Of a DNA stretch of 64,000 nucleotides, positions 8,233 to 56,682 are shown one piece after another (the first letter of the stretch is position 1; every line of letters begins with the position of its first letter). A model generated the notes under the pieces. It did not search any database. It had not been told where the DNA came from and worked only from the letters and a program-made list of their open reading frames with translations. Position numbers and translations under genes: made by a program. The DNA is from Promethearchaeota archaeon (GTDB taxonomy: Archaea; Asgardarchaeota; Lokiarchaeia; Sigyniarchaeales; SOKP01), in NCBI GenBank assembly GCA_019058425.1, contig JAHPYZ010000002.1:27880-91879 (forward strand). The letters run 5' to 3'.

Positions 8233-8236
8233 TCAA

Positions 8237-8632: not shown

Positions 8633-8635
8633 AAA

Positions 8636-9961: not shown

Positions 9962-9965
9962 AAAG

Positions 9966-21010: not shown

Positions 21011-21022
21011 TTCTTTTTCCTT

Positions 21023-21598
21023 TCATGCCGATTTAATTTTAAATTCAAGATGTATTAGATTAGAAGTTTTTTCTTCAAAATTGGTAGTAAAATCCAATTC
21101 AAAATATTCAGATATTAGATATTTATAAAATTTTGTGAAAAAATTTGAATAAACCTCATCCATATCATGTAAACCTCTAAATGTGAAAGCATTATCTCGA
21201 TTCTGAATGTCAAGAGTATTAAACCATTTTAATCCATTTTTACCAAAAAAATTAATTAAAAAACTTGTATATGACTTTAAAGTATCTTCATTCATAGGTT
21301 TTGCTGTTGAGAATTTCATAATATCTGAGAACAAATCACCAAAATCTTTAGCGATGATCTCAAGAGATTGGTTATCCAATTTAGAAAGAATTTTCGAAAA
21401 AATAGATTTAGATATCATAATCATTTCATTAGTTTGATTGAATAATTCTAAATTGAGCCATTGTTCAATGGCATCTTTGGCAACCAATCCACGTGTCTTA
21501 TTTTCTTGTTTCGCAATTAGTTCTAATTTATTCATTATTTCTTCTGAAAGCCTGAATCCAAGAAAATTACTTTTTTTTTTAAGAGGTTTTTTTGACAT
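21023..21598 (-). CDS. Ribbon-helix-helix (CopG-like) domain protein with unknown C-terminal domain
   Basis: 191 aa. FLGFRLSEEIMNKLELIAKQENKTRGLVAKDAIEQWL fits a beta-alpha-alpha RHH. It ends 12 nt upstream of the coiled-coil gene. Confidence 0.5.
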   Translation of the reverse strand: MSKKPLKKKSNFLGFRLSEEIMNKLELIAKQENKTRGLVAKDAIEQWLNLELFNQTNEMIMISKSIFSKILSKLDNQSLEIIAKDFGDLFSDIMKFSTAKPMNEDTLKSYTSFLINFFGKNGLKWFNTLDIQNRDNAFTFRGLHDMDEVYSNFFTKFYKYLISEYFELDFTTNFEEKTSNLIHLEFKIKSA

Positions 21599-21774
21599 GC
21601 TTTTATTCTAATTATTACTCCTTATAGATTCCTTTTTATAAATAATTAGATGATATCAAAGTATATAAAGTTGTCGATCGTGGGATCTGTTTTCAAATGA
21701 AAACATTTAAATACTATGTAGACTTTAAAAATTCTCAAATAGTCTAATAAAAAATAAGAGGAAAATCAGATAAA

Positions 21775-26273: not shown

Positions 26274-27443
26274 TTAATCAGTGGAAATATATGAAATGAC
26301 TTCAGAAATTATATTATCTGGCATATTTTCTAGAAAACCCTGAGAAGATTTAGAATTTCCACCTCCTTTTCCACCATACTTTTGAATTAAAATCTGCATT
26401 AATTTATTAGAATCAATAGTTTCACTGAGTGAGAGTAATCTTAATTTAACTCCTTCAAATTTAACAAGAATTAATGAATTTAAGGGAAAATTCTCCAAAG
26501 ACTTATTCAATAATTTTATATCTACGTTGAAATCAATATAAAAGAGTGGTATATTCCCGATAATTTTAATTGGGGTTTTAGATATTAATTCTAAAAACTT
26601 AATAGATAAGACTTTTTGTTGGTCCTGGATAGTATCAAGAAGTTCCAAACGCTTTTTTATGAGGTTAACAGTATTTTCTAAAGGGGAATTTAGTCTATTG
26701 GCAAGATATATTATATCTACATTGTCGTTTGAACTCATTAGTAATGATTTATCTCCAATAAAATATCTAATCTTATTTCCTTTTTTGAAATCATAAATGT
26801 AAATCTTTCCTATTTCCGTGGTATTCTTAATATGAGTTCCTCCACAACATACTAAATCTAAATCTTCTATTTCCATTAATCTTATGTTAGATTCATCTGG
26901 GATTGCGCTTCTTATTTTCTCAGAACATTTCCTTGCATCTTTATTTGACATTACATTTGATTTGACCTTTAAATTATTCGAAGAGCAAATTTTATTTACT
27001 TCAATTAAGACTTCTTTTAATTGATTATATTCTATTTTTTGAGATATACTGAGAAATACTTCTTCAAAAGCAAGATTAGCTCGAACGGTTTTAATATTGA
27101 ACTTATTTTTAAAAACTGCTGAAAAAATATGTTGAGAAGTGTGAGCTTTCATAATTCCATAGCGATAATCCCAATCAATTTGTCCCTTAACGTTGTCTCC
27201 TATATTAACTTGATTTTTAAAATCAGAGGTAATATGATGCAATATCTCTTCTCCATCTTTAATCACTTTTTCAATTTTAAGTTTGGTATTTTCTATAACT
27301 AATTCTCCTCGATCACTTGCTTGGTTTCCACTTTCGGGATAAAATAAAGTTTTATCAAGAACAATCCCCTCCTCTCTAATCTCTGTTATTTTAGCAGTGA
27401 ACTTAATATCATAAGCATTTTCCCAATATAATTTTTCAGTCAT
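26274..27443 (-). CDS. alaX: AlaX-L type alanyl-tRNA editing protein (editing domain + DHHA1-like C-terminus)
   Basis: HTSQH...CCGGTH zinc/editing motifs and a C-terminal GGKGGGNSKSSQG. The track ORF starts at TTG 27467, but ATG 27443 (MTEKLYWEN) has AAGGTG 7 nt upstream. Confidence 0.8.
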   Translation of the reverse strand: MTEKLYWENAYDIKFTAKITEIREEGIVLDKTLFYPESGNQASDRGELVIENTKLKIEKVIKDGEEILHHITSDFKNQVNIGDNVKGQIDWDYRYGIMKAHTSQHIFSAVFKNKFNIKTVRANLAFEEVFLSISQKIEYNQLKEVLIEVNKICSSNNLKVKSNVMSNKDARKCSEKIRSAIPDESNIRLMEIEDLDLVCCGGTHIKNTTEIGKIYIYDFKKGNKIRYFIGDKSLLMSSNDNVDIIYLANRLNSPLENTVNLIKKRLELLDTIQDQQKVLSIKFLELISKTPIKIIGNIPLFYIDFNVDIKLLNKSLENFPLNSLILVKFEGVKLRLLSLSETIDSNKLMQILIQKYGGKGGGNSKSSQGFLENMPDNIISEVISYISTD

Positions 27444-27559
27444 AAAATACACCTTTTTTGGCAACACTCTCTTTTTAGATAAAATTAATATGAGATTATA
27501 TCAATTAATTATCAAACTTATTTTAAATTGTATAAACTTTCATTATTTCTATTCCTTAT

Positions 27560-39805: not shown

Positions 39806-40654
39806 ATGTCAGTACCTTCAAGTTTAAAAGTAGGTCCTAATACAACCCTTATTTTAGCAAAAAAGAGATATCTTATTTTCTATATTTTCCTTGTCTGGAT
39901 TAGTCTGTTTTCAATTCAATTTGAGTTTTGGGTGCTCTGGATACTCTATGAACCAAAATTTATTCACTTTTTATTGTTCCTTCCTCTAGTTATTTTTCTA
40001 ATGTATCTTTCTTCAATATTAGTATCATTAATCTTCGCTAAAATAATTCTTATTATTGTGAATCTTATTCATAAACCACGTGAAGGAGTATTTTTAAGGC
40101 ATCAATCAGATAAAGATTATAGATATTGGAGTCTAAGAAGTACTATCAAGAAATGGCCAATATGGTTATCTCATAAATTTCCTTTTCCTTTTATGGATAA
40201 TCTATGTTTCAAGATGTTCGGAGTACGAACTAAACTTTCCAGTTCATTATTTGAAGGATGGGTAGATACTGAATTTATCGAATTTGGAAAAAATGTTGTG
40301 GTAGGACAAGGAGCTATTGTTCAATCTGCAATTATAGTTGGAAATCTGTTTATTATAAGAAAAACTATCATTGAGGATAATGTTGTAATTGGTGCTCAAT
40401 CTGTTGTTATGCCTGGCACACATATGAAAAGAAATTCAATTCTAGGAGGGCATTCCCTAACCACAGTAGGTCAAGAACTTGAAGAATGTTTCATCTATTT
40501 AGGAGCTCCGGCAAAAAAATTCAAAAAAAATGTATTCCTTGAAGATGGATTGGAAGAAATCATACAAGAGCAAGGAGAAAAGCAAATTAAATCAAAAGTT
40601 AGTGTTGAAGAATTATACACGGTACGCAAAGATAAAGAAACTAAGGTCGAATGA
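39806..40654 (+). CDS. TM-hairpin + hexapeptide beta-helix module protein, module type 3 of 3
   Basis: 282 aa. TM hairpin, then IHKPREGVFLRHQSDKDYRYWSLRS..., then IEFGKNVVVGQGAIVQSAIIVGNLFIIRKTIIEDNVVIGAQSVVMPGTHM. It starts 3 nt after module 2. Ortholog-like paralog at 52936-53886. Confidence 0.6.
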   Translation: MSVPSSLKVGPNTTLILAKKRYLIFYIFLVWISLFSIQFEFWVLWILYEPKFIHFLLFLPLVIFLMYLSSILVSLIFAKIILIIVNLIHKPREGVFLRHQSDKDYRYWSLRSTIKKWPIWLSHKFPFPFMDNLCFKMFGVRTKLSSSLFEGWVDTEFIEFGKNVVVGQGAIVQSAIIVGNLFIIRKTIIEDNVVIGAQSVVMPGTHMKRNSILGGHSLTTVGQELEECFIYLGAPAKKFKKNVFLEDGLEEIIQEQGEKQIKSKVSVEELYTVRKDKETKVE

Positions 40655-41505
40655 TAAAAATCTTTCCTAATGTTTTATCAAACTCCCAAGGTAGACTAAA
40701 TATGAAAATTGGATATATTCAATCATCTCCATTATTTGGGGATAAGGAGCAAAATTTTGAAGAAATTAAAAACCTTACATCAAATATAAAAGCAGATTTA
40801 ATTGTTTTACCAGAATTATTTGTTACAGGGTATACCTTTATATCCAAAAAAGAAGCAGAATCTTTGGCAGAAGATCTTGAAGGGGAAACGGCTCAATTTT
40901 TAACTGACATCTCCCAATCAACAGGTGCTATTGTAGTTGGAGGATATATTGAAAAAGATCGTCAGAAGATCTATAATTCAGCAATGATTGTATCAAAAAA
41001 TGGAGTTATTGGCTCTTATAGAAAAATTCATTTATATTTCAAGGAAAAAATGTGGTTTTCTCCAGGAGATAAGCCATTAAAAGTATATGATATTAATGGA
41101 ATTAAAATAGGTATAATGATTTGTTTTGATTGGATTTTTCCAGAGACTGCGCGTACTCTAGCAATCTTAGGCGCGGATATAATTGCCCATCCTGCAAATT
41201 TAGTCCTTCCATATTGTCAAAGTGCGATGGTTACAAGATGTTTAGAAAACAGGGTATATGCGATTACTTCGAATAGAATAGGTGAAGAAATAAGAGGAGA
41301 TGATCATTTTAAATTTACTGGAAAAAGTCAAATAACTTCATATAACGGTGAAATCTTATCATCTGCTCCTAATGATAAAAGTTTTATTGATGTTATAGAA
41401 ATTGATATTCAAAAAGCTAGATATAAAAAACTTAATGAATTTAATGATTTACGTAATGATCGTCGACCAGAATTTTACAATTCCATTGTAAATCAAAAAA
41501 AATAG
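40651..41505 (+). CDS. Carbon-nitrogen hydrolase (nitrilase superfamily)
   Basis: 284 aa with Glu-Lys-Cys triad contexts PELFVTGY, YRKIHLY and GIMICFDWIFPE. ATGA overlap with the module-3 gene; an alternative start is ATG 40702. Confidence 0.8.
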   Translation: MIKIFPNVLSNSQGRLNMKIGYIQSSPLFGDKEQNFEEIKNLTSNIKADLIVLPELFVTGYTFISKKEAESLAEDLEGETAQFLTDISQSTGAIVVGGYIEKDRQKIYNSAMIVSKNGVIGSYRKIHLYFKEKMWFSPGDKPLKVYDINGIKIGIMICFDWIFPETARTLAILGADIIAHPANLVLPYCQSAMVTRCLENRVYAITSNRIGEEIRGDDHFKFTGKSQITSYNGEILSSAPNDKSFIDVIEIDIQKARYKKLNEFNDLRNDRRPEFYNSIVNQKK

Positions 41506-41515
41506 TTATAATTTT

Positions 41516-42421
41516 ATGAAAATTGGATATCCTTGTATAAATTTAACTTTAAATTGCAGAAGTAGTAGAACTTTTCGCTTGGAAAATTATTCAGAAGAAA
41601 GACTTATAGGAACTATTGATAATAACTTAAAATGTTTATCTAAAATCTTAAAATTTAACACTGAAAATAATCTTCTGTTTTTTCGAATTACTTCGGATTT
41701 GATACCATTTGCTTCACATCCAATCATGAAATTCAATTGGCAAAATTATTTCAAATCTAAATTCAAAGAAATTGGGTCATATATAAAAAAGAAATCAATG
41801 CGGATCAGCATGCATCCTGGGCAATATACTGTACTTAACTCAAAAAATAAAAATGTGGTTCAAAATAGCATAAAAGAATTAAAATACCATGTAGAAGTTT
41901 TAGAGGTATTAGGTTTAAATTCAGAAGCGAAAGTGATAACTCATGTGGGAGGTGTTTATGGAGATAAGAAAAGCAGTATTAAACGCTTTCTCCAGATGTA
42001 TAAAACTCTCAGTGATAACATAAAGATGCATTTCATAATTGAAAATGATGATAAAAGTTATAATATAAAGGATTGCTTAAAAATCAATGACAACATAGGA
42101 ATTCCAATTGTTTTCGATTCATATCATCATTTTTGTTATAACCAAGGGGAATCTATTGAAGAGGCTATCCAACTTATCTCGAAAACTTGGAAAAAAAAAG
42201 ATGGATTACCTATTCTACATTACAGTTCTGAACATCCAATTAAGGGAAAATATAGACATGCTGATGAAATTGATATAAGTCATTTTAACAATTTTTTAAA
42301 AAAGTCATGTAATTATGATTTTGATCTAATGTTAGAAGTTAAAAATAAAGAAAAAAGTGCTATTCTTGCCAGAGAGCAATTAATTAATGATGTAAGATTT
42401 AAAACAAATTCAGAACTATGA
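41516..42421 (+). CDS. uvdE: UV-damage endonuclease (UvdE/Uve1 family)
   Basis: 301 aa. MKIGYPCINLTL...RTFRL...NL..L..IL.FN.ENNLLFFRITSDLIPFASHP and later HVGG..GDK / FDSYHH blocks are typical of UvdE TIM-barrel endonucleases. Confidence 0.75.
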   Translation: MKIGYPCINLTLNCRSSRTFRLENYSEERLIGTIDNNLKCLSKILKFNTENNLLFFRITSDLIPFASHPIMKFNWQNYFKSKFKEIGSYIKKKSMRISMHPGQYTVLNSKNKNVVQNSIKELKYHVEVLEVLGLNSEAKVITHVGGVYGDKKSSIKRFLQMYKTLSDNIKMHFIIENDDKSYNIKDCLKINDNIGIPIVFDSYHHFCYNQGESIEEAIQLISKTWKKKDGLPILHYSSEHPIKGKYRHADEIDISHFNNFLKKSCNYDFDLMLEVKNKEKSAILAREQLINDVRFKTNSEL

Positions 42422-42464
42422 AAAAATTAGCAGTATATTTTTAATGTAAAAAAAGCTGATATTA

Positions 42465-42938
42465 ATGATGAAAGTTATTAAATTACCTAAAATGGAAGAA
42501 AGGGAGATATTAGAAGCGATAAATTCACAAAATTTGTGTAGAATCGCTTTTATAGATGGTGATTATCCTTATATTGCTCCATTTCAATATATTTGTATAA
42601 ATAATGAGTTATATTTTCATTTTACGGATTATGGTAAAAAAAAGGAGATTATTTCAAAAAATACTAATGTATGTGTCTCAATAGAAAGATTTGAAACAGA
42701 TCTTAGTAGTTATTATTTTATATCGATGCAAGGTAAATTGGAATTAGTTGAAAATACAGATTTGAAAACGAAAGTCATCTTTCAAATGAAAAATTCTGCG
42801 GGAAGTAGTTATTCAGAGAATTTTCTTTCAGCGCATGGTTTTGATAAGAATCTTGGTTGGGAAGGATTTATAGTCAAAAATCAACTCATTTACAAACTTT
42901 CTCAATCAAGAGATCCAATTGGATTAAAGTCTATTTAA
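42465..42938 (+). CDS. Pyridoxamine-5'-phosphate-oxidase-like (split-barrel) flavin-binding protein
   Basis: 157 aa. LCRIAFIDGDYPYIAPFQYICINNELYFHFTDYGKKKEI matches the PNPOx-like (Pyridox_ox_2) N-terminal pattern. Confidence 0.6.
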   Translation: MMKVIKLPKMEEREILEAINSQNLCRIAFIDGDYPYIAPFQYICINNELYFHFTDYGKKKEIISKNTNVCVSIERFETDLSSYYFISMQGKLELVENTDLKTKVIFQMKNSAGSSYSENFLSAHGFDKNLGWEGFIVKNQLIYKLSQSRDPIGLKSI

Positions 42939-43004
42939 AATTACTTTGATTTCTTAATTTGGTTAATAGTTTAAAATGTTTTTAAAAAGAATTTATTGAT
43001 TTGG

Positions 43005-43057
43005 AAAAGTTTGGCTAACTTTTGGCAATAAAATCTAACATTTATCATTTTATTCCC
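43005..43057 (-). promoter_or_regulatory. Two consecutive hairpins in the 3' UTR of the TGA-containing redoxin gene (candidate SECIS and/or terminator)
   Basis: RNA sense: GGGAAUAAAAU[GAUAAAUGUUAG]AUUUUAUUGCC (43057-43024; 8 A-U pairs, a G-G mismatch, then 2 G-C pairs; 12-nt loop). It starts 7 nt after the stop and is immediately followed by AAAAGUU[AGCCA]AACUUUU (43023-43005). Structure is seen by eye only and I cannot match it to a SECIS consensus. Confidence 0.25.
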
Positions 43058-43063
43058 TCCAAA

Positions 43064-43543
43064 TCATTGATTTTTATTAATTTCTTCAAGAACTTGTAAT
43101 ATTTCATCATTTTCTGGGATATCATGCATATTCTTGCCATAATAAGCATATTGTATTATTCCTTTTTTGTCAATGACTAATAGTCCAGGCATTCGACCAA
43201 GTTTTATCCACCTTGTTTCTTGTTTCAACATCTCAGCAACTGATTTTGATTGGTCGTAAAATATAGCATATTTTCGTGCATATTTCTGCTCCATTTTTTT
43301 AGCATTTTTTTCATTATCTACTAAAATTGGATAGAGAAATCCATCTAATTGTTCAAATTTCTCAATATCTCTTCTTAATCTCGCAGCATGCCATCGGCAG
43401 AAAGGTCAATTAATATCTCTAAATAATATAATAACTACATTCTTTTTATTTTCGAAATCTCGTATGTTAATTGTTTCTCCTCTAGAATTTGGCAAACTAA
43501 ATTCACTTATTTTAGATCCCACTACATTAAATTTATCTTTCAT
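43064..43543 (-). CDS. Thioredoxin-fold redoxin/peroxiredoxin-like protein with in-frame TGA at the catalytic Cys position (probable selenoprotein, UPFC motif)
   Basis: A 160-codon frame from ATG 43543 (GAAGG RBS about 10 nt upstream) reads MKDKFNVVGSKISEFSLPNSRGETINIRDFENKKNVVIILFRDIN[TGA]PFCRWHAARL...LGRMPGLLVIDKKGIIQYAYYG.... The TGA (43406-43408) replaces the first Cys of the F...W-C-P-F-C redox motif. The track shows only the 76-aa part downstream of the TGA. Confidence 0.65.
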
Positions 43544-43575
43544 ATTTATTTACCTTCTTTTTTTAAATTTAAATT

Positions 43576-44041
43576 TTAGATTTCCTTAAGAATCTTAAAG
43601 ATTTCTTCAATTGTAGGTATATCATCCATATAATCACTGTAATAGGCGTATTTTATAATTCCCTTTTTATCGATTATGAGTAATGCGGGCATCCTACCCA
43701 ATTTAAAAGGTTTTACTTCCTGTTTTAATATCTTATTTACTTTCTTTTTACGATCATAAAAAAATTGGATATTTTTTTGCAAAATTGGCTTCAAATTTCT
43801 TAGCACTTTCATAGTCATCTGGTAGAATTGCATATAATAAAGCATTGTAATTCTGAGACTTTTCAAACATATTACTTAACTTTTGAGCATAAACTTTAGC
43901 ATATGGTCAACTTTTACTTCGAAATAAAACTATTACTACACTACTGCCCATATAGTCTCGAATAATCCTAGTTTCACCTCTTGAGTTCGGTAATTCGAAT
44001 TCTTTTATTTTAGAACCTACTAAATTAAATTTATCTTTCAT
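43576..44041 (-). pseudogene. Paralogous redoxin gene with TGA at the same position (UPYA) plus a frameshift in an A7/T7 run; pseudogene, sequencing error or recoding
   Basis: From ATG 44041: MKDKFNLVGSKIKEFELPNSRGETRIIRDYMGSSVVIVLFRSKS[TGA 43907-43909]PYAKVYAQKL...EANFAKKYPIF. The frame then shifts by 1 at the homopolymer 43758-43764 to continue YDRKKKVNKILKQEVKPFKLGRMPALLIIDKKGIIKYAYY.... The span is 466 nt, not a multiple of 3. Confidence 0.5.
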
Positions 44042-44276
44042 TATGCTCACATAATATCAATTTGTAGATTTATCAAATAAGAATTAAATATTATTCATAT
44101 ATATTCCTTTATATTAATTCTAAATGTGTTTAATATTATTAATCTGGATATAGATCGAATTCTCTATATTTTATTAATTAATTTCATTTTTTTTTTCAAA
44201 TTTTAAAGAATAGAATGTCATAAATTTATAAATTTAAGTAACATAAGTTAAAATCTAATTTCACATATTTTGAATT

Positions 44277-45116
44277 ATGAATTCTATTGAAAAAACAGAA
44301 GAAGGTTGGTTAATTCCAAAATCTCCTATTACTTTCGATTACCTAAAAAAATTCAATCGGAATATGGGTATTTTACATTTGATACAAGGGTTACTAATGG
44401 TGCTTTTTGGGTTTTTACCTCAACTAGCTTTTTCCAGAGACATTTACACTTTTTACCTCAAGTTTGAACTCGTTGGTCCAGATTTCGTTATTTCACCAAA
44501 TCCTACAGTGTTGTTTGTCTTTAGTGCTTTAGGGGCATTTGTTGGCTCTTTTCTATTAATGTCTGCCATCGCTCATTTGTTAATAGCTTATCCGCTAAAT
44601 AAAAGCTATGTTAGAAATTTAAAAAGAGGAATAAACAAAGTACGTTGGTTTGAGTACGCCCTATCAAGTTCCGTAATGATTTTCTTAATAGCTATCTTTT
44701 TTGGAGTCTGGGATTTTTGGTCATTGTTTATGATTTTTATTTCTAATGCCTTGATGAATATGTTTGGCTTAATGATGGAATCATATAATGTATATACAAG
44801 AGAAAGAAATGAGAAGGTTAAATGGGGACCATATTATTTAGGTGTAATCGCAGGAGCCGTTCCTTGGATTGTTATTACTGCATATTTTATAAGTACTGAA
44901 ACCATTGGAGGAGAAGTACCACTATTTGTCTATTTGATTTATGGAATCGAACTATTTTTCTTTAACACATTCGCAATCAATATGATACTGCAATATAAAG
45001 GAGTGGGAAAATGGAAGGATTATCTATACGGTGAAAGAGTATATCAACTACTAAGTCTTGTATCTAAAACCTTTTTAGCATGGCTCGTATTTGCTGGAGT
45101 ATTTAGTCCTACATAA
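44277..45116 (+). CDS. Heliorhodopsin
   Basis: 279 aa with 7 TM helices. Strong colinear similarity, from my memory of heliorhodopsin 48C12: KKFNRNMGILHLIQ, AIAHLLI, KVRWFEYALSSSVMIFLIA, GAVPWIV, FFFNTFAINMILQYKGVGKWKDYLYGERVYQLLSLVSKTFLAWLVFAG. The Schiff-base Lys candidate is K264 (nt 45066-45068) and the counterion-position Glu is E126. Confidence 0.85.
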   Translation: MNSIEKTEEGWLIPKSPITFDYLKKFNRNMGILHLIQGLLMVLFGFLPQLAFSRDIYTFYLKFELVGPDFVISPNPTVLFVFSALGAFVGSFLLMSAIAHLLIAYPLNKSYVRNLKRGINKVRWFEYALSSSVMIFLIAIFFGVWDFWSLFMIFISNALMNMFGLMMESYNVYTRERNEKVKWGPYYLGVIAGAVPWIVITAYFISTETIGGEVPLFVYLIYGIELFFFNTFAINMILQYKGVGKWKDYLYGERVYQLLSLVSKTFLAWLVFAGVFSPT

Positions 45117-45154
45117 TATAATAGTCTATATTTTTTTCTTTTTTTTTAGTTAAA

Positions 45155-46795
45155 TTATACATCTAATACATAAATCGGCCACTTTTTCAAAATACCTTTG
45201 GGATTTTTCCCGTTTCGGACTTTATTTAACATTACAGATCTGGTTGCTAAGAAGTCTACCGGATTATTTTTGATTAATTCTAATTTAATATCTCTGTTTA
45301 AAATGGCTCGTTTAAAATTTTCATTTTTAATACACTTTACCAATATCTCACGATAATCTTGTAAATTTGAACATTTTGTATTGTCACTCGAGTAAAGATA
45401 TAATTTCTTTGCGTTATTCGTAGATCTAATATGGTTTATTAAAAGAAGTGAGTCAATATATAAAGCACAATTCTCTTTCAAGCAATTTAATAGTAACCGT
45501 GGATTATTAATATCGAAATTTGGAAAAGTAAAATAATCACCCGCATAGACTTTATAATTCGATGGTAAACTAATCTCACTTGATACATTTATTGGATATT
45601 TTAGTTGAAAACTTGATCTTAAGATTTTTCCGTCAATTTGAGGAAGCCCATTCTGATTTAAAAGAGAGATTACATCCCCTATATTTATATTAATTAATAC
45701 TCCTGTGGTATGAAGCCGAGAAACATAAAGCTTACCAAATTTATTTTGTGATCTAGAAACTGGTTCTCTCTTTCCATCATATTCTATTGCAGGTAAGGTT
45801 AAGGGAAAGATGTACATTCTATTAGAACGAGATATTTCAAAATCTCCCGCGTTAATACTTGCCGCAAATGGCCCAATTTCAGAAGCGACATAGAGATTAG
45901 TAAATTTTTCTGTGCCTTCTTCCCATTTCATAAATTTACGAATTAATAACCAATCTGATTTTGATAACGAACTAATACTAAAAATTAAAGTTGCCCTCGA
46001 TATTTTTTTTGATAATTCTTTCTGAATTTGTTTTGAAGTATTATACAATCCATTTTTTTCTATTTTCAACAAGAGATCTTGAAGTTTAGGATTTTTATTT
46101 TTTTTAATTAAATCAAGTGATCTTCTTATCCCCTCCTGGAGTCTATTAATATCTGCCCATCCTAAAATTGTTATAGCGGGAGCAGAAATAACTGAGATAT
46201 TATTCATCGTTAGAATTTGAGCTATAATCGCTAAATTCCTTGAATTTTTATATTCATAGAACAAATAAGATTTTGGTTTAATAATAGAAAGCATGATCCT
46301 TTGAGAAAATTCTGAAGAATAGAGTGAGACGTACTTCTTTGACTCAAAAGTACTAATTCCATCAAATTTCAATCTCGAGGGTACGAAAATTATAGCAGAT
46401 GATTTTGAATCTAATCCACTGGATTCAAAAATTGCTTGCATACCAGGAGCCCATTGCCTCTTTACAATATCTTTTGCCATATGAAACCATTTTAGCATAG
46501 ATAACTTACTGTTTGTTGTCCCTGATGTATGACAAAAGATTAGGGGATCATTTTCTTGTTTTTTTTTCAAGAAATCTTCTAAATCTATTGAGAAACTTCT
46601 TGATTCAGTGGTATCAGACTTTAATCTTTCGAAAATGTCTTCAACAGACGATAATCCCGAGAATTTTAAAGATATTTCCTCATATTCTTCCCGAGAACTA
46701 ATATCAAGCCATTTCTTCCAATCTGTTCTTTGAATATTGGAGAAATTATTATCGAAGATTCTTTGAGTCTCTAAATCAAAATCAAACGCATTCAA
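45155..46795 (-). CDS. Divergent adenylate-forming (ANL / PaaK-F390-synthetase / GH3-like) enzyme, putative
   Basis: 546 aa. FCHTSGTTNSKLSMLKW resembles the (T/S)SGTTG.PK P-loop motif. LYVASEIGP, NIGDVISL and PQIDGKILRS sit where motifs A5, A7 and A8 would be. All motifs are degenerate, so the call is tentative. Confidence 0.35.
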   Translation of the reverse strand: MNAFDFDLETQRIFDNNFSNIQRTDWKKWLDISSREEYEEISLKFSGLSSVEDIFERLKSDTTESRSFSIDLEDFLKKKQENDPLIFCHTSGTTNSKLSMLKWFHMAKDIVKRQWAPGMQAIFESSGLDSKSSAIIFVPSRLKFDGISTFESKKYVSLYSSEFSQRIMLSIIKPKSYLFYEYKNSRNLAIIAQILTMNNISVISAPAITILGWADINRLQEGIRRSLDLIKKNKNPKLQDLLLKIEKNGLYNTSKQIQKELSKKISRATLIFSISSLSKSDWLLIRKFMKWEEGTEKFTNLYVASEIGPFAASINAGDFEISRSNRMYIFPLTLPAIEYDGKREPVSRSQNKFGKLYVSRLHTTGVLININIGDVISLLNQNGLPQIDGKILRSSFQLKYPINVSSEISLPSNYKVYAGDYFTFPNFDINNPRLLLNCLKENCALYIDSLLLINHIRSTNNAKKLYLYSSDNTKCSNLQDYREILVKCIKNENFKRAILNRDIKLELIKNNPVDFLATRSVMLNKVRNGKNPKGILKKWPIYVLDV

Positions 46796-48757: not shown

Positions 48758-50587
48758 ATGGGGATGACAGAATTAACTTCAATTGAGACTGTCCCAGAGA
48801 AGCACTCTATTCGAGAGGAAATTGATACTCAATATTTTTGGTATCTATTTGTTCTTTTCGCAATATTTTTAGCATCATTAGTTATTCCTGCTATTATATT
48901 CATTTTTTATATGATTTTCTTCTTTATACCTAATTTTTTAGAAGTTCCAAGTTTTTTAGCTCTTTTTACACAATTTAAACCTTTATTAGCCTTAGTCTCT
49001 ATGCCTTTAGTCCTAATCGGTTGTTATCTTATTCGTTTATATTTTATTGGATTAATAACACGTGGTTTTAAGTTTTTAACCGAAAAAAGATCTCCTAGTA
49101 AAGAAGGTATTATTCCAAGAAATTTTCCCAGCAAAACCTTAAGTTACTATCAAATCAGAGGGTTTATGATAAAATATGGAAAGAATGCGTTCATGAAAGG
49201 ACCTTTTCCATGGCTTGGCAATTGGTATTTTAATTTTATAGGTGCTAGTAAAATTGGAAAAGGCACTACATTTGAAGAATCCCCCAGTAATGATAAATTT
49301 ATTGAAGTAGGAGAGAATTCCTATATTGGAGTTAATTCATCTTTAGCTAGTCACGTTATTGAGGGAATTTTTGGAAACATTTCATATTTTAAAGTAAAAA
49401 CTGGAAATAATTTTACTGCTGCAGCCAGTAATGTTTTAGGTCCTGGTTCTGAGGCATATGATAATTCTTATTTACTTCCTTTAGCAGCAACCCCAAAGCA
49501 TAGTGTAATTAAAGGAAATAATTATTATTGGGGTATGCCTTTAAGGAAAATTTTCAGAAAAAAGATAATGAATTTTTTAAGATTAACACCAAAAGATTTA
49601 GAGAGAGGTGAAAATGTTGGAGGTTTTCGGGACAAAAAATTGTTAAAAAAATTAAAAACTAGAAAACTCTCAAAACACCTTGAATCTGAGACAAAAATAC
49701 AACAAGAAAACACAGAATCTAGAGAGAGTCTTATAAACCATAATAATATAGATGAAGAAAATCTAAAAATTGATTTTACTACAAGTAGTGCGATTTCAAG
49801 AGTAAATATTAGATTTTTAGTTTTATATATCCCAATTTTTTGGTTATCTGGGATGTTAGATACTGCAATCTTTTATTCTTTCACTTCATATGTTCACAAT
49901 TGGATATTAATGGCCTTTTTTCTACCTGCTATATTTATTATTATGTGGTTTGTTTTCATTTTTGGGTGTTTTATTTTCAGTAAACTTTTCCTAGTCTTAA
50001 TAAATTTAATACATAAGCCAAAAGAAGGAATCTTCAAGGCGGAAAAGGGTGATTCTGATTTTGAGTTTTGGTGTTTACGAACTGAATTAAAAAAGATAGC
50101 ATTTTGGCTTATAAGAAATTGGCCGCTTCCATGGATGGATATTTTAGCCTTTAAATGGTTTGGAATTAAAATGAAATTATCAAGTACCTTATGGGATTCC
50201 TACACTGATGGTGAGTTTATTCAGTTTGGACGTAGAGTAATAGTTGGACAAGGTGCTAGTGTTATGTCTTCAATGGTAATAGGTAAATATTTACTGATTA
50301 AGAAAGTCTTCTTTGATGATTATGTTGTTATTGGAGGGCAGAGTATCATCGCCCCAGGAACGATTGTTGGTAAGGATTCTGTGGTTGGGGCTCTCAGTAC
50401 GACTACTTATAATCAAGTTCTTGAACCAGGTTGGATTTATTTTGGAATTCCAGTAATTAAATTAAAACCAAATAAGTATGCTGAGGGAAGAAGGGAAATT
50501 CTTATGAAAAGAGATGTTGATGGGGAGAAAAAGTTTGAAATAAAGTATGATGTCAATGTCGATGAAGATAAGAAAGATATCGCTTAG
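48758..50587 (+). CDS. Fused module-1 + module-2 TM/hexapeptide beta-helix protein (locus 2)
   Basis: 609 aa. Residues 1-300 are colinear with 38000-38935 (KRSPSKEGIIPRNFPSKTLSYYQIRGF...GPFPWLGNWYFNFIGASKIGKG). Residues 330-609 are colinear with 38922-39803 (IHKPKEGIFKAEKGDSDFEFW...IQFGRRVIVGQGASVMSSMVIGKYLLIKK). No module-3 gene follows. Confidence 0.6.
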   Translation: MGMTELTSIETVPEKHSIREEIDTQYFWYLFVLFAIFLASLVIPAIIFIFYMIFFFIPNFLEVPSFLALFTQFKPLLALVSMPLVLIGCYLIRLYFIGLITRGFKFLTEKRSPSKEGIIPRNFPSKTLSYYQIRGFMIKYGKNAFMKGPFPWLGNWYFNFIGASKIGKGTTFEESPSNDKFIEVGENSYIGVNSSLASHVIEGIFGNISYFKVKTGNNFTAAASNVLGPGSEAYDNSYLLPLAATPKHSVIKGNNYYWGMPLRKIFRKKIMNFLRLTPKDLERGENVGGFRDKKLLKKLKTRKLSKHLESETKIQQENTESRESLINHNNIDEENLKIDFTTSSAISRVNIRFLVLYIPIFWLSGMLDTAIFYSFTSYVHNWILMAFFLPAIFIIMWFVFIFGCFIFSKLFLVLINLIHKPKEGIFKAEKGDSDFEFWCLRTELKKIAFWLIRNWPLPWMDILAFKWFGIKMKLSSTLWDSYTDGEFIQFGRRVIVGQGASVMSSMVIGKYLLIKKVFFDDYVVIGGQSIIAPGTIVGKDSVVGALSTTTYNQVLEPGWIYFGIPVIKLKPNKYAEGRREILMKRDVDGEKKFEIKYDVNVDEDKKDIA

Positions 50588-50605
50588 GTTTTCATTAATT
50601 TTTTA

Positions 50606-50998
50606 CTATATCTTTAAATTGAGTTGTTTTTTCAAGAATTTCTTCAAATTTTTACAAGTATTATTCAATACAGCTTTTTCTTTATAAAATAGATGAGTTC
50701 GAGGACAATACTTATCATATATACATTTTTGTTTTTCAAAATCAAAAATTAGAGGATAAAATCTACAACCTTGTGGCCTATATTCATAAATATTACATAT
50801 TTTTGAATTTTTCTCAAAAAAAATACAATTACCTTCAATATTTTTCAATTGAAAAAGGTTATCTTCATTTTTAAAATAAAATGCTTGATTAGGTAAATAA
50901 TTTTGGCATTTTCTTATTATTAAGCTAATATCATCTTCGGAGACAATCATCTCTGTCTCTATACAACACTTTCCGCAATCCTTACATTTATCAGACAT
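50606..50998 (-). CDS. YkgJ/UPF0153-type CxxCxxCC Cys-cluster protein
   Basis: 130 aa. CKDCGKCC near the N-terminus plus later Cys residues (CIFF, CNIYEYRPQGCRFYP) fit the putative Zn/Fe-chelating YkgJ family. Confidence 0.55.
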   Translation of the reverse strand: MSDKCKDCGKCCIETEMIVSEDDISLIIRKCQNYLPNQAFYFKNEDNLFQLKNIEGNCIFFEKNSKICNIYEYRPQGCRFYPLIFDFEKQKCIYDKYCPRTHLFYKEKAVLNNTCKNLKKFLKKQLNLKI

Positions 50999-51085
50999 TA
51001 TGATTTGTTCTTTTTATCTGAGACTAATACTTTTAAAAGAAAAAAAAATATCTATTAAATTATAATAAGTATCAATTGTTTTTTA

Positions 51086-52939
51086 ATGAAGAAAAAATTA
51101 CTGAAACCTAGCGAAGAAGTTATAAAAGAAGAAGTAAGTCTTCAATTTCATTTATATATTATAATATTCGCTATAATCTATTATGTTTCATGGGTTATTC
51201 CAGGATTTGTTTTTTGGCTATATTTTTTCTTTCCCTTTCGAATATTTTTTCTAGAAAATATTGGATTTTTTTCTTTATTTACTAATCTTAGTTCTCTAAT
51301 AAGCTTGTTGATTATGCCGTTGGTGATTATTGGCTGCTATTTGCTTCATTTATTTTTTCTTGGATTAATTACACGATTAATTTGGGGAATTACAGAAAGG
51401 ATTTCTCCATCCAAATCAGGAATAATACCAAGAAATATTAAAAGTAGGGCTGCCAATTATTACCATATACGAAGTTTCATGATAAAATATGGAAAGAATA
51501 CATTTACAAAAGGAATGTTTCCATGGCTCTCGAATTGGTTTTTTAATTTTGTAGGAACAAACAAAATAGGAAAAGGCTCTACTTTTGAGGAATCTGTAGG
51601 AAATGATAAATTTGTTGAAGTAGGAGAGAATTGCTATTTCGGAGTTAATTCTACTTTAGCAAGTCATCTGATCCAAGGAGTCTTTGGAAACATATCATAT
51701 TTTAAAATTAATGTTGGAAATAATGTTACTTTTGCTGCAATGTGCGGAGTAGGTCCTGGGTCAGAACTTTATGATAATGCTTATCTATTACCGCTAGCTT
51801 CAACTCCAAAACATAGTGTGATGAAAGGAAGTAATTACTATTTTGGAATGCCAATGAGGAAAATCTTTAGGAAGAAAATAATGAATTATCTTGATGTAGT
51901 TCCAAAAGATTTGGAAATGAGTGATAATATTCAGGGGTATTCTGATAAGAAATTATTAAAAGAAATAAAAGAAAAAAAAGGGGTTTTAAAAACTTTTGAT
52001 GAAAAACTCGATAAAGAACAATTATTAAGTAATCAAGAAGATGAAGTAGTAAATATAGAAAATCTAACTGAACAAGATTTAAGGATTGATTTCACCACTA
52101 GTTCAGCAATAAGTAGGGTAAATGCAAAATTCTTACTTGTTTATATACCTATTTTTTGGCTATCAGGACTAGTAGTAACAATAATTTGGTATTGGTACTC
52201 TAGAACACAAGTTGCAACAAACTTTCAATGGTCTTTTTTCTTTGCTTTCCCACTTGTTTTGTTCGGATTAACGTATATCTTTATTTTAGGGTGTCTTCTT
52301 TTTAGTAAGCTTTTTTTGATATTAGTCAACTTAATTCACAGACCTAAGGAGGGGGTTTTCAAAGCTGCGATTGGGAATACTGATTTTGAGTTTTGGCAGT
52401 TGAGAACTGAGTTAAAGAAGATTCCTTTATGGTTTTTTCGGAATTCACCATTTCCATGGACTGATGTTTTAGCTTTCAAACAAATGGGGGTTAATATGGA
52501 TTTTTCTAGCCATTTAGCTGACACATGGTGTGACTCGGAATTTATTAAATTTGGTCGGAAAGTTATGATTGGGCAAGGAGCTACTTTAATGTCTTCAATG
52601 GTAGTTGGTAAATATTTATTAATTAAGAAAGTATTTTTTGAGGACTATGTTATGGTTGGAGGACATACTACAATATCCCCTGGAACCGTAATAGGGAAAG
52701 AAACTGTTATTGGTGCTCTCAGTACAAGTACTTATGAACAGGTTTTAGAACCAGCATGGATATACTTCGGAATTCCAGCTATGAAAATGAAAGAAAACAA
52801 GTATGCTGAAGAGAGAAGAGATATAATAATAAAACGAGAAGTTGCAGATGCTAAAAAGACTGAATTAATACATGATGTAAATATTGATGAAGATAAAAAA
52901 AAATTAATCAAATTAGAAAAAGAGAGTGAGGAAAAATGA
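51086..52939 (+). CDS. Fused module-1 + module-2 TM/hexapeptide beta-helix protein (locus 3)
   Basis: 617 aa, colinear with 48758-50587 over its full length (ERISPSKSGIIPRNIKSRAANYYHIRSF...; IHRPKEGVFKAAIGNTDFEFW...IKFGRKVMIGQGATLMSSMVVGKYLLIKK). Confidence 0.6.
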   Translation: MKKKLLKPSEEVIKEEVSLQFHLYIIIFAIIYYVSWVIPGFVFWLYFFFPFRIFFLENIGFFSLFTNLSSLISLLIMPLVIIGCYLLHLFFLGLITRLIWGITERISPSKSGIIPRNIKSRAANYYHIRSFMIKYGKNTFTKGMFPWLSNWFFNFVGTNKIGKGSTFEESVGNDKFVEVGENCYFGVNSTLASHLIQGVFGNISYFKINVGNNVTFAAMCGVGPGSELYDNAYLLPLASTPKHSVMKGSNYYFGMPMRKIFRKKIMNYLDVVPKDLEMSDNIQGYSDKKLLKEIKEKKGVLKTFDEKLDKEQLLSNQEDEVVNIENLTEQDLRIDFTTSSAISRVNAKFLLVYIPIFWLSGLVVTIIWYWYSRTQVATNFQWSFFFAFPLVLFGLTYIFILGCLLFSKLFLILVNLIHRPKEGVFKAAIGNTDFEFWQLRTELKKIPLWFFRNSPFPWTDVLAFKQMGVNMDFSSHLADTWCDSEFIKFGRKVMIGQGATLMSSMVVGKYLLIKKVFFEDYVMVGGHTTISPGTVIGKETVIGALSTSTYEQVLEPAWIYFGIPAMKMKENKYAEERRDIIIKREVADAKKTELIHDVNIDEDKKKLIKLEKESEEK

Positions 52940-53886
52940 GTGTTCCAAATACAATGAGAATCGGACCTTTTGTTACAAATGTTTTAGTAAAAAAAAGTTA
53001 TTTAATTTTATATATTTTTATTATATGGGCAAGTCTCATTCCAATCCTTTTGGAATTCTGGATTTATTGGCGATTTTTATGGAATGCAGTGAGACCTGTC
53101 CATTTTTATACATTTCTTCCACTCTTAGCTTTTCTGATGTATATTACTCTCGTTTTTTCTGCAATTATTTTTGCTAAGATCATATTGCTGGTCGTAAATG
53201 TTATTCATAAACCCCGAGAAGGTGTTTTTTTACGAATTCCAGAGGATCAAGATTATAGATATTGGAGTCTTCGAAGTGTTATAAAGAGATGGCCAATCTG
53301 GCTCGCTCACAGATTTCCTTTCCCAGGATTTATGGATAATATTTGTTTCAAAATGTTTGGAGTGAAAACAAAGATTTCGAACTCTTTATTTGAAGGGTGG
53401 GTTGATGCTGAATTTGTAGAGTTTGGTAAAGATGTAGTAGTAGGACAAGGAGCAATTGTACAATCTGCTGTAATTATTGGTAATCTATTAATAATCAGGA
53501 AAACAATCGTTGAAGAAAATGTTAGAATAGGTTCACATGCTATAATAATGCCAGGTACACATATCGGATATAATTGTATTTTAGCAGCGAATTCAGTGAC
53601 TACAGTTGGCCAAGTTTTAGAGAGAGGTTATATTTATGCGGGAGTTCCAGCAAAGAAATTTAAGAAGAATTATTTTTTTGAAGATGGTTTAGAAGATAGA
53701 ATAGGTCATGTAGAAGATGTTGAAGCGTTAAGAGAGAAATATGAAGAAATATATACTAAAAGGCATGATCAAATTACCCGTAAAGACCGCAGGGAAATCA
53801 AGAGAGAAAAGAAGGAAGAAGAAAAGAAGAGATTTGATATCGCCGCCGAAGAATGGGAAGAATTTGATGATGGTTTCAATATATAG
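52936..53886 (+). CDS. Module-3 TM/hexapeptide beta-helix protein (locus 3)
   Basis: 316 aa. ATGA overlap with the preceding gene. Colinear with 39806-40654 (IHKPREGVFLRIPEDQDYRYWSLRS...VEFGKDVVVGQGAIVQSAVIIGNLLIIRK). The C-terminal tail is charged. Confidence 0.6.
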   Translation: MSVPNTMRIGPFVTNVLVKKSYLILYIFIIWASLIPILLEFWIYWRFLWNAVRPVHFYTFLPLLAFLMYITLVFSAIIFAKIILLVVNVIHKPREGVFLRIPEDQDYRYWSLRSVIKRWPIWLAHRFPFPGFMDNICFKMFGVKTKISNSLFEGWVDAEFVEFGKDVVVGQGAIVQSAVIIGNLLIIRKTIVEENVRIGSHAIIMPGTHIGYNCILAANSVTTVGQVLERGYIYAGVPAKKFKKNYFFEDGLEDRIGHVEDVEALREKYEEIYTKRHDQITRKDRREIKREKKEEEKKRFDIAAEEWEEFDDGFNI

Positions 53887-54088: not shown

Positions 54089-54796
54089 TTATTTTAATAT
54101 GAAGTACATTCTTCTATTGTTTTTACCTTTATTGACTGTTTTAGTTACCTCAATTTTGCCAATTTCTTTTAGATGATTGATATGTGTGCCTCCGTCTACT
54201 TGTTCATCGATATCTCCAATTCTAACAATTCTAAATTCTTTGATATTCTTAGGTAATCCTACAGCTAGGCGTGCTAATTCAGGTTTTCCTAAAACCTCAT
54301 CCCTAGTCATGTAATCGATAGTAGTTGGTAAGTCTTGCTCGATAATACTATTAGCTTCATCTACAAAATCTCTCAATTTTTCAGGAGAATAATCTAGCAT
54401 TGAGAAATCCATTCTTGTTTTATCCATTTCTATTTGATTCCCTGTAATTTTCGCATCAGCTCTCTTATAAAGTATATTACTAATGAGATGAGAAGCTGTA
54501 TGATATCGCATATAGGTATATCTACGTTCCCAATTGAGTTCACAATGAACCTTATCACCTTCTTTTAACCCTGACTTATCTACTTCATGACTAATATTCC
54601 CTGAAAACTTTCCAACATAAACCACCTTATACTCTTGATCATCCTTTATGATTGAGCCTTCATCCCAAGGTTGACCTCCTCCTTTAGGGTAGAAAGCAGT
54701 ATTATCTAATACCACATATTTATCATCTGTGACACTTACCACTTTCGCATTCCAGCTTTTAAGGTAAGAATCATCCATATAGAGTGCTCTAGCCAT
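54089..54796 (-). CDS. alaX: AlaX-M type alanyl-tRNA editing protein
   Basis: 235 aa with an N-terminal beta-barrel region, YHTASHL and VDGGTHINHL editing-site motifs. Confidence 0.8.
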   Translation of the reverse strand: MARALYMDDSYLKSWNAKVVSVTDDKYVVLDNTAFYPKGGGQPWDEGSIIKDDQEYKVVYVGKFSGNISHEVDKSGLKEGDKVHCELNWERRYTYMRYHTASHLISNILYKRADAKITGNQIEMDKTRMDFSMLDYSPEKLRDFVDEANSIIEQDLPTTIDYMTRDEVLGKPELARLAVGLPKNIKEFRIVRIGDIDEQVDGGTHINHLKEIGKIEVTKTVNKGKNNRRMYFILK

Positions 54797-55644: not shown

Positions 55645-56682
55645 ATGAAAGTTGTTGAAGTAGCTGGCACTAAATTTGAGGTTAAAAAAGGATTTCTTGA
55701 TTTAAGTCTTTTAGAAATAAAAAATATTAATGAAATACAAGGATTGTCAAAAATAAAAGATTTAAAGAATCTTGAATTAAGCTCAAATGATATTGGAACA
55801 GTAGAAGGGTTAGATGATTTAGCTGAGTTGGAGATTTTAAATTTGGGTAATAATAATATAATTGACATACAAGGATTAGACAATTTACAAAATCTTAAGA
55901 TTCTACATCTTATAAGCAATCGAATATCTGAAATTAAAGGATTAGAGAATTTAACAAATTTGGAGGAACTGTATCTAAGGGGAAATCAGATATCTGAGTT
56001 AAAAGGGTTAAAAGAATTAACTTCACTAATAAGATTAGATCTTTCTTGGAATGAGATTTCAGAAATAAAGGGGTTTGAAACACTAAGAAATCTCGAAGTG
56101 CTATGGATTGCGGGAAATAAGTTAGAAGAAATCAAAAATTTAGATAAATTAGAGAACTTAGAAGTATTAAATCTTGCAGGAAATCAGATTAAAAATATTG
56201 GAGGTTTAGAGAATTTAAAAAGTCTAAAAAGTCTCTATTTAAATAATAATTTAATTCAAGAAATTCATGGTTTGGATACTCAGGAAAGCTTGGAAACGTT
56301 ATGGCTCAATACCAATCACATTTCAAATATAAGAGGATTAGATAATTGCAAAAGTTTAAAAATTCTAAACCTAAAGCAAAACAACATATCTCAGATAAGA
56401 GGATTATATTCCTTAAATGAATTAGAAACACTTTTTCTTTCAGAGAATAGTATTGGTGAAATTAAAGGTCTAGAGGCATTAACTAAATTAGAAACGCTTG
56501 ATTTAGGTCAAAATCGTATAATTCAGATAAAAGGATTAGAATCTTTAATGAATTTAAAGGATTTATGGCTAGCAGATAATGTCATCCCTCAGAAAATATT
56601 GGAGGAATTAGGAGGTTTAGACTCAGGTGGATGTGCACACGATCCTTTAAAATTTGTCCAATATAGTCTTATTAATTTATAA
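55645..56682 (+). CDS. Leucine-rich repeat protein (about 14 tandem 22-residue SDS22-like LRRs)
   Basis: 345 aa with the repeating unit NLxxLxLxxNxIxxIxGLExLxxL at 66-nt DNA periodicity from about 55730 to 56590. No signal peptide or TM helix is visible. Confidence 0.85.
   Translation: MKVVEVAGTKFEVKKGFLDLSLLEIKNINEIQGLSKIKDLKNLELSSNDIGTVEGLDDLAELEILNLGNNNIIDIQGLDNLQNLKILHLISNRISEIKGLENLTNLEELYLRGNQISELKGLKELTSLIRLDLSWNEISEIKGFETLRNLEVLWIAGNKLEEIKNLDKLENLEVLNLAGNQIKNIGGLENLKSLKSLYLNNNLIQEIHGLDTQESLETLWLNTNHISNIRGLDNCKSLKILNLKQNNISQIRGLYSLNELETLFLSENSIGEIKGLEALTKLETLDLGQNRIIQIKGLESLMNLKDLWLADNVIPQKILEELGGLDSGGCAHDPLKFVQYSLINL

Follow-up and report, generated by a model that had tools for sequence, protein, structure and literature searches.

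Organization of the locus

The window, that is, the whole stretch of 64,000 nucleotides analyzed here, is part of the Lokiarchaeia MAG GCA_019058425 and contains two homologous genes arranged head-to-tail on the minus strand, with gene B (44041..43576) upstream and gene A (43543..43064) downstream. Both proteins share the N-terminus MKDKFN(V/L)VGSKI.EF.LPNSRGET, and in-frame TGAs are present on the minus strand at 43406-43408 (gene A) and 43907-43909 (gene B), as an earlier note on this DNA had pointed out. The features of the locus are the following:

43754..44041, minus strand: N-terminal part of gene B in frame 0, MKDKFNLVGSKIKEF...LFRSKS-U-PYAKVY...AKKYPIFL, obtained by translation and ending at a premature UGA (43754-43756)
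43907..43909, minus strand: in-frame UGA of gene B at the putative Sec position, motif U-P-Y-A, recognized by translation and by the motif of the orthologues
43758..43764, minus strand: U7 homopolymer with a +1 frameshift in gene B, recognized from the frame of the orthologues and present in a Logan assembly
43576..43757, minus strand: C-terminal part of gene B in the +1 frame, YDRKKKVNKILKQEVKPFKLGRMPALLIIDKKGIIKYAYYSDYMDDIP...KEI (YDRKKKVNKILKQEVKPFKLGRMPALLIIDKKGIIKYAYY...KEI), ending at the UAA stop 43576-43578
43544..43575, minus strand: spacer of 32 nt between genes B and A with a Shine-Dalgarno-like GAAGGU, read from the sequence, without model match
43064..43543, minus strand: gene A, predicted Prx-like selenoprotein gene, one frame of 159 codons closed by a UGA stop
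43406..43408, minus strand: predicted Sec codon of gene A, UGA, codon 46, with TGA at the same codon in 79/80 loci and Cys in homologues
42998..43065, minus strand: SECIS-type three-way junction of 68 nt in the 3'UTR of gene A, from its fold, covariation, covariance model and TGA association
43059-43065 with 42998-43004, minus strand: outer stem of the element, GAUUUGG with CCAAAUC (fold)
43026-43055, minus strand: hairpin 1 of the element, 9-bp stem GAAUAAAAU/AUUUUAUUG and 12-nt loop GAUAAAUGUUAG (fold)
43005-43023, minus strand: hairpin 2 of the element, AAAAGU-UAGCCAA-ACUUUU (fold)
42984..42990, minus strand: U-rich tract UUCUUUUU, likely an archaeal transcription stop judging from its sequence

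Gene A and the conservation of its TGA codon

Gene A translates as MKDKFNVVGSKISEF...LFRDIN-(UGA)-PFCRWH...INKNQ, followed by the UGA stop. Its redox motif is U46-P-F-C49, in which C49 is the sole Cys of the protein. It had been claimed that reading through one TGA gives a full-length product in each gene and that the frames are intact around both TGAs. This holds for gene A (159 aa), whereas gene B, which carries a +1 frameshift and has no SECIS of its own, reaches a second stop at the UGA 43754-43756. Gene A matches the Pfam AhpC-TSA profile (PF00578) over profile positions 1-123 of 124 (E = 1.7e-19), and the frame-repaired gene B matches it over the same positions (E = 8.7e-20).

Asgard genomes were scanned using one genome per species (GTDB species representatives), and the best 80 loci were scored. 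At exactly the codon of gene A, a TGA is found in 79 of these 80 loci, the lone exception being a Helarchaeote with Asp at that position. The TGA loci span Lokiarchaeia, Jordarchaeia, Freyarchaeia, Atabeyarchaeia, Borrarchaeum, and Hod- and Hermod-labelled MAGs; among them are P. syntrophicum MK-D1 and L. ossiferum, whose genomes are closed. At the TGA position, CPFC is read in P0063 and P0075, two Cys homologues with 46-48% identity. The same position corresponds to the first Cys of WCPYC in the Trx-family protein PDB 3hdc, and in an alignment with the BCP 2cx3 it falls on the Ser of SPVC; the correspondence between U and Cys columns anticipated in the earlier note is thus recovered in both homologues and in 3hdc. 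In a comparison with 21 close relatives, purifying selection on gene A is reflected in a pN/pS of 0.12 on the 5' side of the TGA and of 0.11 on its 3' side, with a pS of about 0.6. With about 60% of difference at synonymous sites, these two values show that both halves of gene A are translated in one frame under equal constraint.

On these comparative grounds, gene A is a convincing selenoprotein gene, and Sec insertion can be predicted for the MKDKF subfamily of PrxL proteins. The idea that a Lokiarchaeon has thioredoxin-fold redoxins with Sec in place of the catalytic Cys is upheld by the comparative data and by two previous studies (Mariotti et al., 2016, PMC4989117; Huang et al., 2024, PMC11227280), which also agree with the use of redox selenoproteins by Lokiarchaeota. 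The Sec codons had been correctly spotted by a reader using the sequence alone.

The relatives of these proteins in the databases are of two kinds, namely proteins of about 155 aa encoded on contigs of about 1 kb and C-terminal fragments of about 90-100 aa encoded on long Promethearchaeota/Lokiarchaeota contigs. The full-length homologues have W at the TGA position and several of them continue past the terminal TGA (...KKQ-W-FGGNKI..., e.g., P0001 and P0008). These W-bearing sequences are artefacts of a TGA-as-Trp translation and not genuine Trp proteins.

Elsewhere in the window, a scan for single in-frame TGAs between long open frames retrieved no further redox-motif case. A Sec codon in the molybdopterin oxidoreductase at 8237-9961 was considered and rejected: the two same-frame ORFs lie 3 nt apart, and the stop separating them is a TAA, followed by GGAGG and an ATG. 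They represent two distinct genes with Cys, one FwdD-like and one FwdB-like. The tRNA scan of the window retrieved none, and no Sec-machinery domain was detected within it, in line with the earlier statement that the window lacks genes of the Sec machinery.

A three-way junction element in the 3'UTR of gene A

The 68-nt element starts at the stop codon of gene A, which is overlapped by an AUGA at 43064-43067. The MFE fold of the window sequence alone gives the three-way junction (z = -2.7), with a G.G mismatch as the basal pair of hairpin 1 in the window copy. In a MAFFT alignment of 27 diverse copies, 16 of the 22 pairs change on both sides and 88% of the cells pair; this result was equalled by none of 500 shuffles, and slid controls showed only 32-55% pairing. 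The corresponding number is 21 of 22 pairs in the 84-copy covariance-model alignment, which is structure-fitted and hence biased towards the structure. The covariance model R1 scores 83.8 bits at 42998-43065 and at most 22 bits in the rest of the window, so that the covariance search for a SECIS proposed in the earlier note retrieved an element after gene A and none for gene B.

The model matches after all TGA loci (79/79), in 5 copies beside additional PrxL genes and in the B-type loci L096-L099. Every scanned TGA-bearing copy, except gene B of the window, has the 3'UTR element. Its absence was scored on three Cys/Asp homologues with a readable 3' flank: the element was found neither after the Cys-type gene in L100, where a convergent neighbour extends over the stop, nor after the Cys-type gene of L101, located downstream of an element-bearing Sec-type copy, nor in the Asp-variant locus L074. 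Mainly because it is present after TGA genes and absent after these Cys/Asp homologues, the element can be proposed as a candidate SECIS, its function being suggested by the association with TGA. In nearly all loci, the model consensus shows a U-rich sequence 3' of the element. An Rfam scan of the whole window, including the eukaryotic and bacterial SECIS families, retrieved no match at gathering score.

These data bear on two other readings of the TGA codons. If the TGAs were plain stops, the redoxin genes would be decayed or split and at most short pieces would be translated, as could be expected from the C-terminal fragments that gene callers exclusively give and from the second lesion of gene B. 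However, the TGA is kept in 79 of the 80 genomes while synonymous changes approach saturation, the sequences before and after it are under equally strong purifying selection, the AhpC-TSA domain spans it, and a dedicated covarying 3'UTR element tracks it, which leaves this reading very improbable. A reassignment of TGA, e.g., to Trp (code 4) or Gly (code 25), would place a residue other than Sec in the active site and would match the public full-length homologues with W there. Nevertheless, this W is a gene-calling artefact on contigs of about 1 kb, since P0001 and P0008 also run through their terminal TGA into the 3'UTR. In addition, TGA is an ordinary stop in the window, where it closes 11 of the 54 long ORFs, including gene A, and no other gene of the window needs TGA read-through. 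A reassigned codon thus has a close to negligible probability.

Gene B and its orthologues

The 96-aa ORF that the ORF track of the earlier note gave for this gene is the frameshifted C-terminal piece of gene B. One U less in the U7 run restores the ...KKYPIF-YDRKKKV... of the orthologues, and the C-terminal part can be aligned gap-free with B-type orthologues. Cys is missing from the whole protein. No SECIS of its own was detected for gene B, as the window has no second element (model matches elsewhere of at most 22 bits) and the 32-nt spacer contains neither a SECIS nor a U-run.

The motif U-P-Y-(A/S/T), with zero Cys, is found in 15 orthologues from different species. As these share the motif and each has its own SECIS, U-x-x-A represents a conserved variant and not decay. 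At least 19 loci besides the window belong to this U-x-x-A subclade with its own SECIS; what had been described as an unusual variant without a resolving Cys is rather a conserved subclade. The gene order is syntenic (546-aa protein, heliorhodopsin, PrxL, PNPOx-like, UvdE, CN-hydrolase), and the PrxL slot is held by an A-type or a B-type gene. Most genomes have a single PrxL gene in this slot; the window genome and L003 carry both types. In L003, a B gene with its own SECIS is followed by an A gene, and in L014 the A gene comes first and a B remnant, which has a SECIS, lies after it. These A and B loci fit an old tandem pair that was reduced to one gene in most genomes.

The frameshift was absent from all the gene B orthologues compared, and no near-identical intact copy of gene B was found in other assemblies, the closest intact homologue being 75% identical. 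A Logan assembly made from run SRR14817123 shows 100% identity along 4134 nt that contain the U7 run. The pN/pS of gene B against its orthologues is 0.24 (orthologue range 0.19-0.31), and gene B has 6 unique changes at otherwise invariant columns (0-5 in the other orthologues). Past the shift, 60 codons remain open and are conserved. Since no degeneration is visible, either the lesion arose recently or gene B remains in use with the SECIS of gene A. We lean towards the first possibility, namely that gene B is a recently disabled paralogue, i.e., a pseudogene. A programmed +1 frameshift at the U7 run was rejected, as its context is poor and it is not shared by the orthologues.

According to the other possibility, gene B would continue to work as a selenoprotein gene by being co-transcribed with gene A and borrowing its SECIS, the extra U being a sequencing or consensus error, a minority allele or a position bypassed by transcriptional or ribosomal slippage on the U7 run. 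The spacer between the genes, only 32 nt long and without a U-run terminator, would allow this, a pN/pS like that of the orthologues and the conserved open codons after the shift are in agreement with it, and a precedent exists in the HdrA-VhuD gene pairs of Loki, which share one downstream SECIS (Mariotti et al., 2016, PMC4989117). As in those pairs, genes A and B are adjacent TGA-containing genes on the same strand, separated by very few nucleotides and served by one SECIS at most, which lies downstream of the second gene. In contrast, the upstream gene B is frameshifted and its orthologues have their own SECIS. Indeed, all the other B-type genes examined keep their own element, and because the orthologues elsewhere have one, any SECIS sharing by gene B would look secondary. 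The same U7 run in an independent Logan assembly speaks against an error, the shift is seen in no orthologue, and the context for +1 slippage is poor, as the P-site UUA cannot re-pair on UAU and there is no hungry codon. A still functional gene B is therefore doubtful, and its inactivation is preferred.

Relationship to known Prx-like selenoproteins

Both genes are already published, as their exact sequences are contained in the catalogue of Huang, Xiao and Zhang (ISME J, 2024; PMC11227280). In supplementary file 79 of that work, the entry Lokiarchaeia_GCA_019058425_U_2 is identical to gene A, and Lokiarchaeia_GCA_019058425_U corresponds to gene B, beginning with the GTG at 44050 and ending with ...KKYPIFL, where it is cut at the frameshift. 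There is no difference between genes A/B and these catalogued PrxL proteins, gene B being given there as a 98-aa product without comment; we found no mention in that study of the frameshift, of the absence of a SECIS for gene B or of the two genes being in tandem. The entries of GCA_019058425 belong to six families (2 SelD, 1 FrhA, 4 FrhD, 4 HdrA, 1 DsbA-like and 4 Prx-like); the catalogued SelD is a Sec-SelD, and a PrxL entry of the DFFRGNW-U-SHC type is also present (Huang et al., 2024). The same study reports the PrxL family in 43% of the Sec-using Asgard archaea and required at least three Sec-machinery genes, including tRNA-Sec, for the inclusion of a genome. The presence of tRNA-Sec, EFSec, PSTK and SepSecS in GCA_019058425 would thus be expected, indirectly, from these inclusion criteria and from the SelD entries.

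The Prx-like class was defined by Fomenko and Gladyshev, as cited by Mariotti et al. (2016, PMC4989117). Like the PrxL.1 (UxxU) and PrxL.2 (UxxC) proteins of the latter authors, the proteins of this locus have a thioredoxin fold with Sec first in the redox box and no Cys outside it. They differ in subfamily, gene A having MKDKF...LFRDIN-U-PFC instead of ...DFFRGNW-U-xHC. The UPFC of gene A is of the UxxC/UxxU type; the UPYA of gene B is not, though it was filed in this family by Huang et al. (2024).

The fold and an alignment over about 150 residues also relate these proteins to the BCP/PrxQ peroxiredoxins (PDB 3drn, 2cx3). The difference lies in the active site, where Sec stands in place of the Thr/Ser of T/S-x-x-Cp, and the position of the peroxidatic Cys is occupied by C49 in gene A and by Ala in gene B. 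The T/S-x-x-Cp motif of typical Prx is accordingly not found, as Sec occupies the Ser/Thr position when compared with 2cx3. Judging from the sequence, the chemistry is more likely a Trx-like thiol-selenol exchange rather than classic Prx catalysis.

Comparison of the element with lokiSECIS

The lokiSECIS consists of an AUGA, a 9-bp stem, an 11-nt A-rich loop ending with AG, and a GA, and it was already noted that standard SECIS models miss the Loki elements (Mariotti et al., 2016, PMC4989117). Moreover, a location right after the stop, with the AUGA often overlapping the UGA stop, was described by Huang et al. (2024, PMC11227280). The element of gene A likewise lies directly after the stop, which is included in its AUGA at 43064-43067, and has a 9-bp stem and an A-rich loop of about 11-12 nt ending with AG; as in lokiSECIS, the element of the MKDKF subfamily is strictly tied to genes with an in-frame UGA. 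Across this subfamily, hairpin 1 has 9 pairs that covary, and its loop measures 11-19 nt and in most cases ends with UGAN or GAG. In contrast to lokiSECIS, no AUGA lies flush 5' of the stem, where the MKDKF element has a variable 3-nt linker (AGG in the window), and no GA/AA lies flush 3' of it (CC in the window). An AUGA/NUGA is found 8 nt upstream of the stem in only 36 of the 84 copies, and the conserved GA pairs Watson-Crick with UC. On the 3' side of the stem, UU, UA and CU are the commonest dinucleotides over the 84 copies (GA in 5, AA in 5).

In the loci of the other PrxL subfamily (...DFFRGNW-U-SHC...), the stem is flanked by invariant GAAUGA and GGAC, and this lokiSECIS motif is embedded in the same three-way architecture, with an outer stem and a second hairpin. 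The MKDKF and DFFRGNW-type elements thus have in common the stem length, the loop and the architecture, whereas their flanks differ, the AUGA/GA quartet being replaced by G-C and A-U pairs. The loop of the second hairpin, UAGCCA, is strongly conserved across Asgard classes, each position being identical in 77-84 of 84 copies. Neither the three-way junction nor the UAGCCA loop is mentioned in the main texts of Mariotti et al. (2016) and Huang et al. (2024).

Two other structural candidates were discarded. A search with the canonical lokiSECIS pattern (AUGA, 8-12 bp stem, loop, GA/AA) gave only scattered matches of the kind usual in AT-rich DNA, none of them near genes A and B. Some copies could form a kink-turn or K-loop, at the junction or on top of hairpin 1, through tandem G.A pairs (N-GAAAA...UGA-N); this idea was dropped, since the window copy and its nearest relatives do not allow such pairs.

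The best explanation is that the element of gene A is a diverged form of lokiSECIS. A more speculative possibility is that the MKDKF PrxL element constitutes a distinct, undescribed SECIS class, defined by its three-way junction, the UAGCCA hairpin and a kink-turn-like quartet replaced by Watson-Crick pairs or, in a lesser version, that the locus holds a shared-SECIS PrxL pair and that the UxxA clade is a true redox enzyme having one Sec and zero Cys.

Proposed function and implications

Considering all these data, the joint best explanation, to which we give a probability of roughly 0.85, is that gene A is a Sec-decoding PrxL gene with a diverged-lokiSECIS element in its 3'UTR and that gene B is a recently inactivated UxxA paralogue. 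Gene A would encode a 159-aa thioredoxin-fold Prx-like thiol:disulfide oxidoreductase, in which the UGA at codon 46 would be read as Sec to form the U-P-F-C redox centre. This centre may cycle through a selenenylsulfide. The 68-nt three-way-junction element would direct the recoding of the gene A UGA, presumably, in analogy to what is known from other archaea, by recruiting the Sec-specific elongation factor loaded with Sec-tRNA. In the window genome, gene B has lost its own SECIS and acquired the +1 frameshift. The two genes may be co-transcribed, and the DNA of gene B would now mainly serve as the 5' leader of gene A.

As for the genes themselves, there is little new, since they confirm a published catalogue entry; what may be undescribed is the anatomy of the SECIS variant, a three-way junction without the AUGA/GA core, and the degraded state of gene B. 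The catalogue entry for gene B, being frameshifted and without its own SECIS, should be counted as a functional selenoprotein only after more checks. More generally, gene callers fragment the PrxL genes or use code 4, with W at the Sec position, and the database entries of this family are systematically wrong.

If the element does form a distinct SECIS class, the Sec machinery of Asgard archaea would read the apical loop and the second hairpin, with no quartet. To our knowledge, SBP2, which would read a quartet, is missing from Asgard archaea, and for this reason an element without the AUGA/GA core could inform the debate on the relation between archaeal and eukaryotic SECIS.

Database annotation of PrxL proteins

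In public protein collections, every full-length Prx-like (PrxL) selenoprotein entry is a translation that places W at the selenocysteine (Sec) codon (P0001, P0008, P0009, P0011, and P0019), and some of these run past the terminal TGA into the SECIS, the 3'UTR RNA element of these genes (…KKQ-W-FGGNKI…). The entries derived from long contigs are C-terminal fragments. The annotation error is systematic across the PrxL family.

Tandem paralogues at other PrxL loci

Two metagenomic contigs carry a Sec-type PrxL gene with its SECIS followed by a tandem paralogue, which is of the Cys type in one (L101:1091-1989) and of the Asp type in the other (L102:75-1562). The gene next to the Cys-type copy lies 10 nt away, leaving no space for a SECIS-type element; the 3' flank of the Asp-type copy available on its contig is only 66 nt long. 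Pairs of Sec, Cys, and Asp paralogues seem to recur at this type of locus. In another homologous locus (L014:4712-4955), a remnant of a B-type gene (the subclade with the U-x-x-A motif), reduced to residues 107-154, is found downstream of the A-type gene (the type of gene A in the window) and has kept a SECIS that looks intact. This remnant is a further stage in the loss of one tandem copy.

Other gene content of the window

7513-10817 and 12688-13503: apparent formylmethanofuran-dehydrogenase-type genes
20342-21607 (-): a 191-aa and a 222-aa ORF that share a frame, with a lone TGA between them (…FKIKSA*KEKEMENL…)

The first set encodes a 4Fe-4S protein, an FwdD-like protein, an FwdB-like molybdopterin subunit, an FwdC-like GXGXG protein, and FdhD, and looks like the formylmethanofuran dehydrogenase type. 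The FwdD-like and FwdB-like genes share a common frame and are separated by 3 nt; Sec is absent here, as the intervening stop is TAA and FwdB has a Cys. Neither the 191-aa nor the 222-aa ORF has a Pfam match, the TGA dividing them does not lie within a redox motif context, and an ATG comes soon after it; they are probably two genes. The regions 2955-3878, 26274-27467, 48758-53886, 54089-54796, and 55645-56682 encode a TIR-domain protein, two AlaX-like editing-domain proteins, three consecutive large hexapeptide-repeat proteins, and a leucine-rich-repeat protein.

Genomic context of the PrxL genes

40651-46795: conserved gene block
44277-45116 (+): heliorhodopsin gene (PF18761, E = 4.8e-86)

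The block, kept in about 20 Lokiarchaeal genomes, comprises in order a 546-aa protein without a Pfam match, heliorhodopsin, the PrxL selenoprotein, a PNPOx-like flavoprotein, the UV-damage endonuclease UvdE, and a CN-hydrolase. The heliorhodopsin gene is oriented divergently from gene B, the upstream PrxL paralogue. Across nine related genomes its protein is 93-96% identical, whereas the adjoining 546-aa gene reaches just 69-79%; further relatives have a heliorhodopsin copy that is 52-60% identical and lies on the opposite strand. Since light sensing, redox, and UV repair are mixed in this block, its genes may have a common role in stress.
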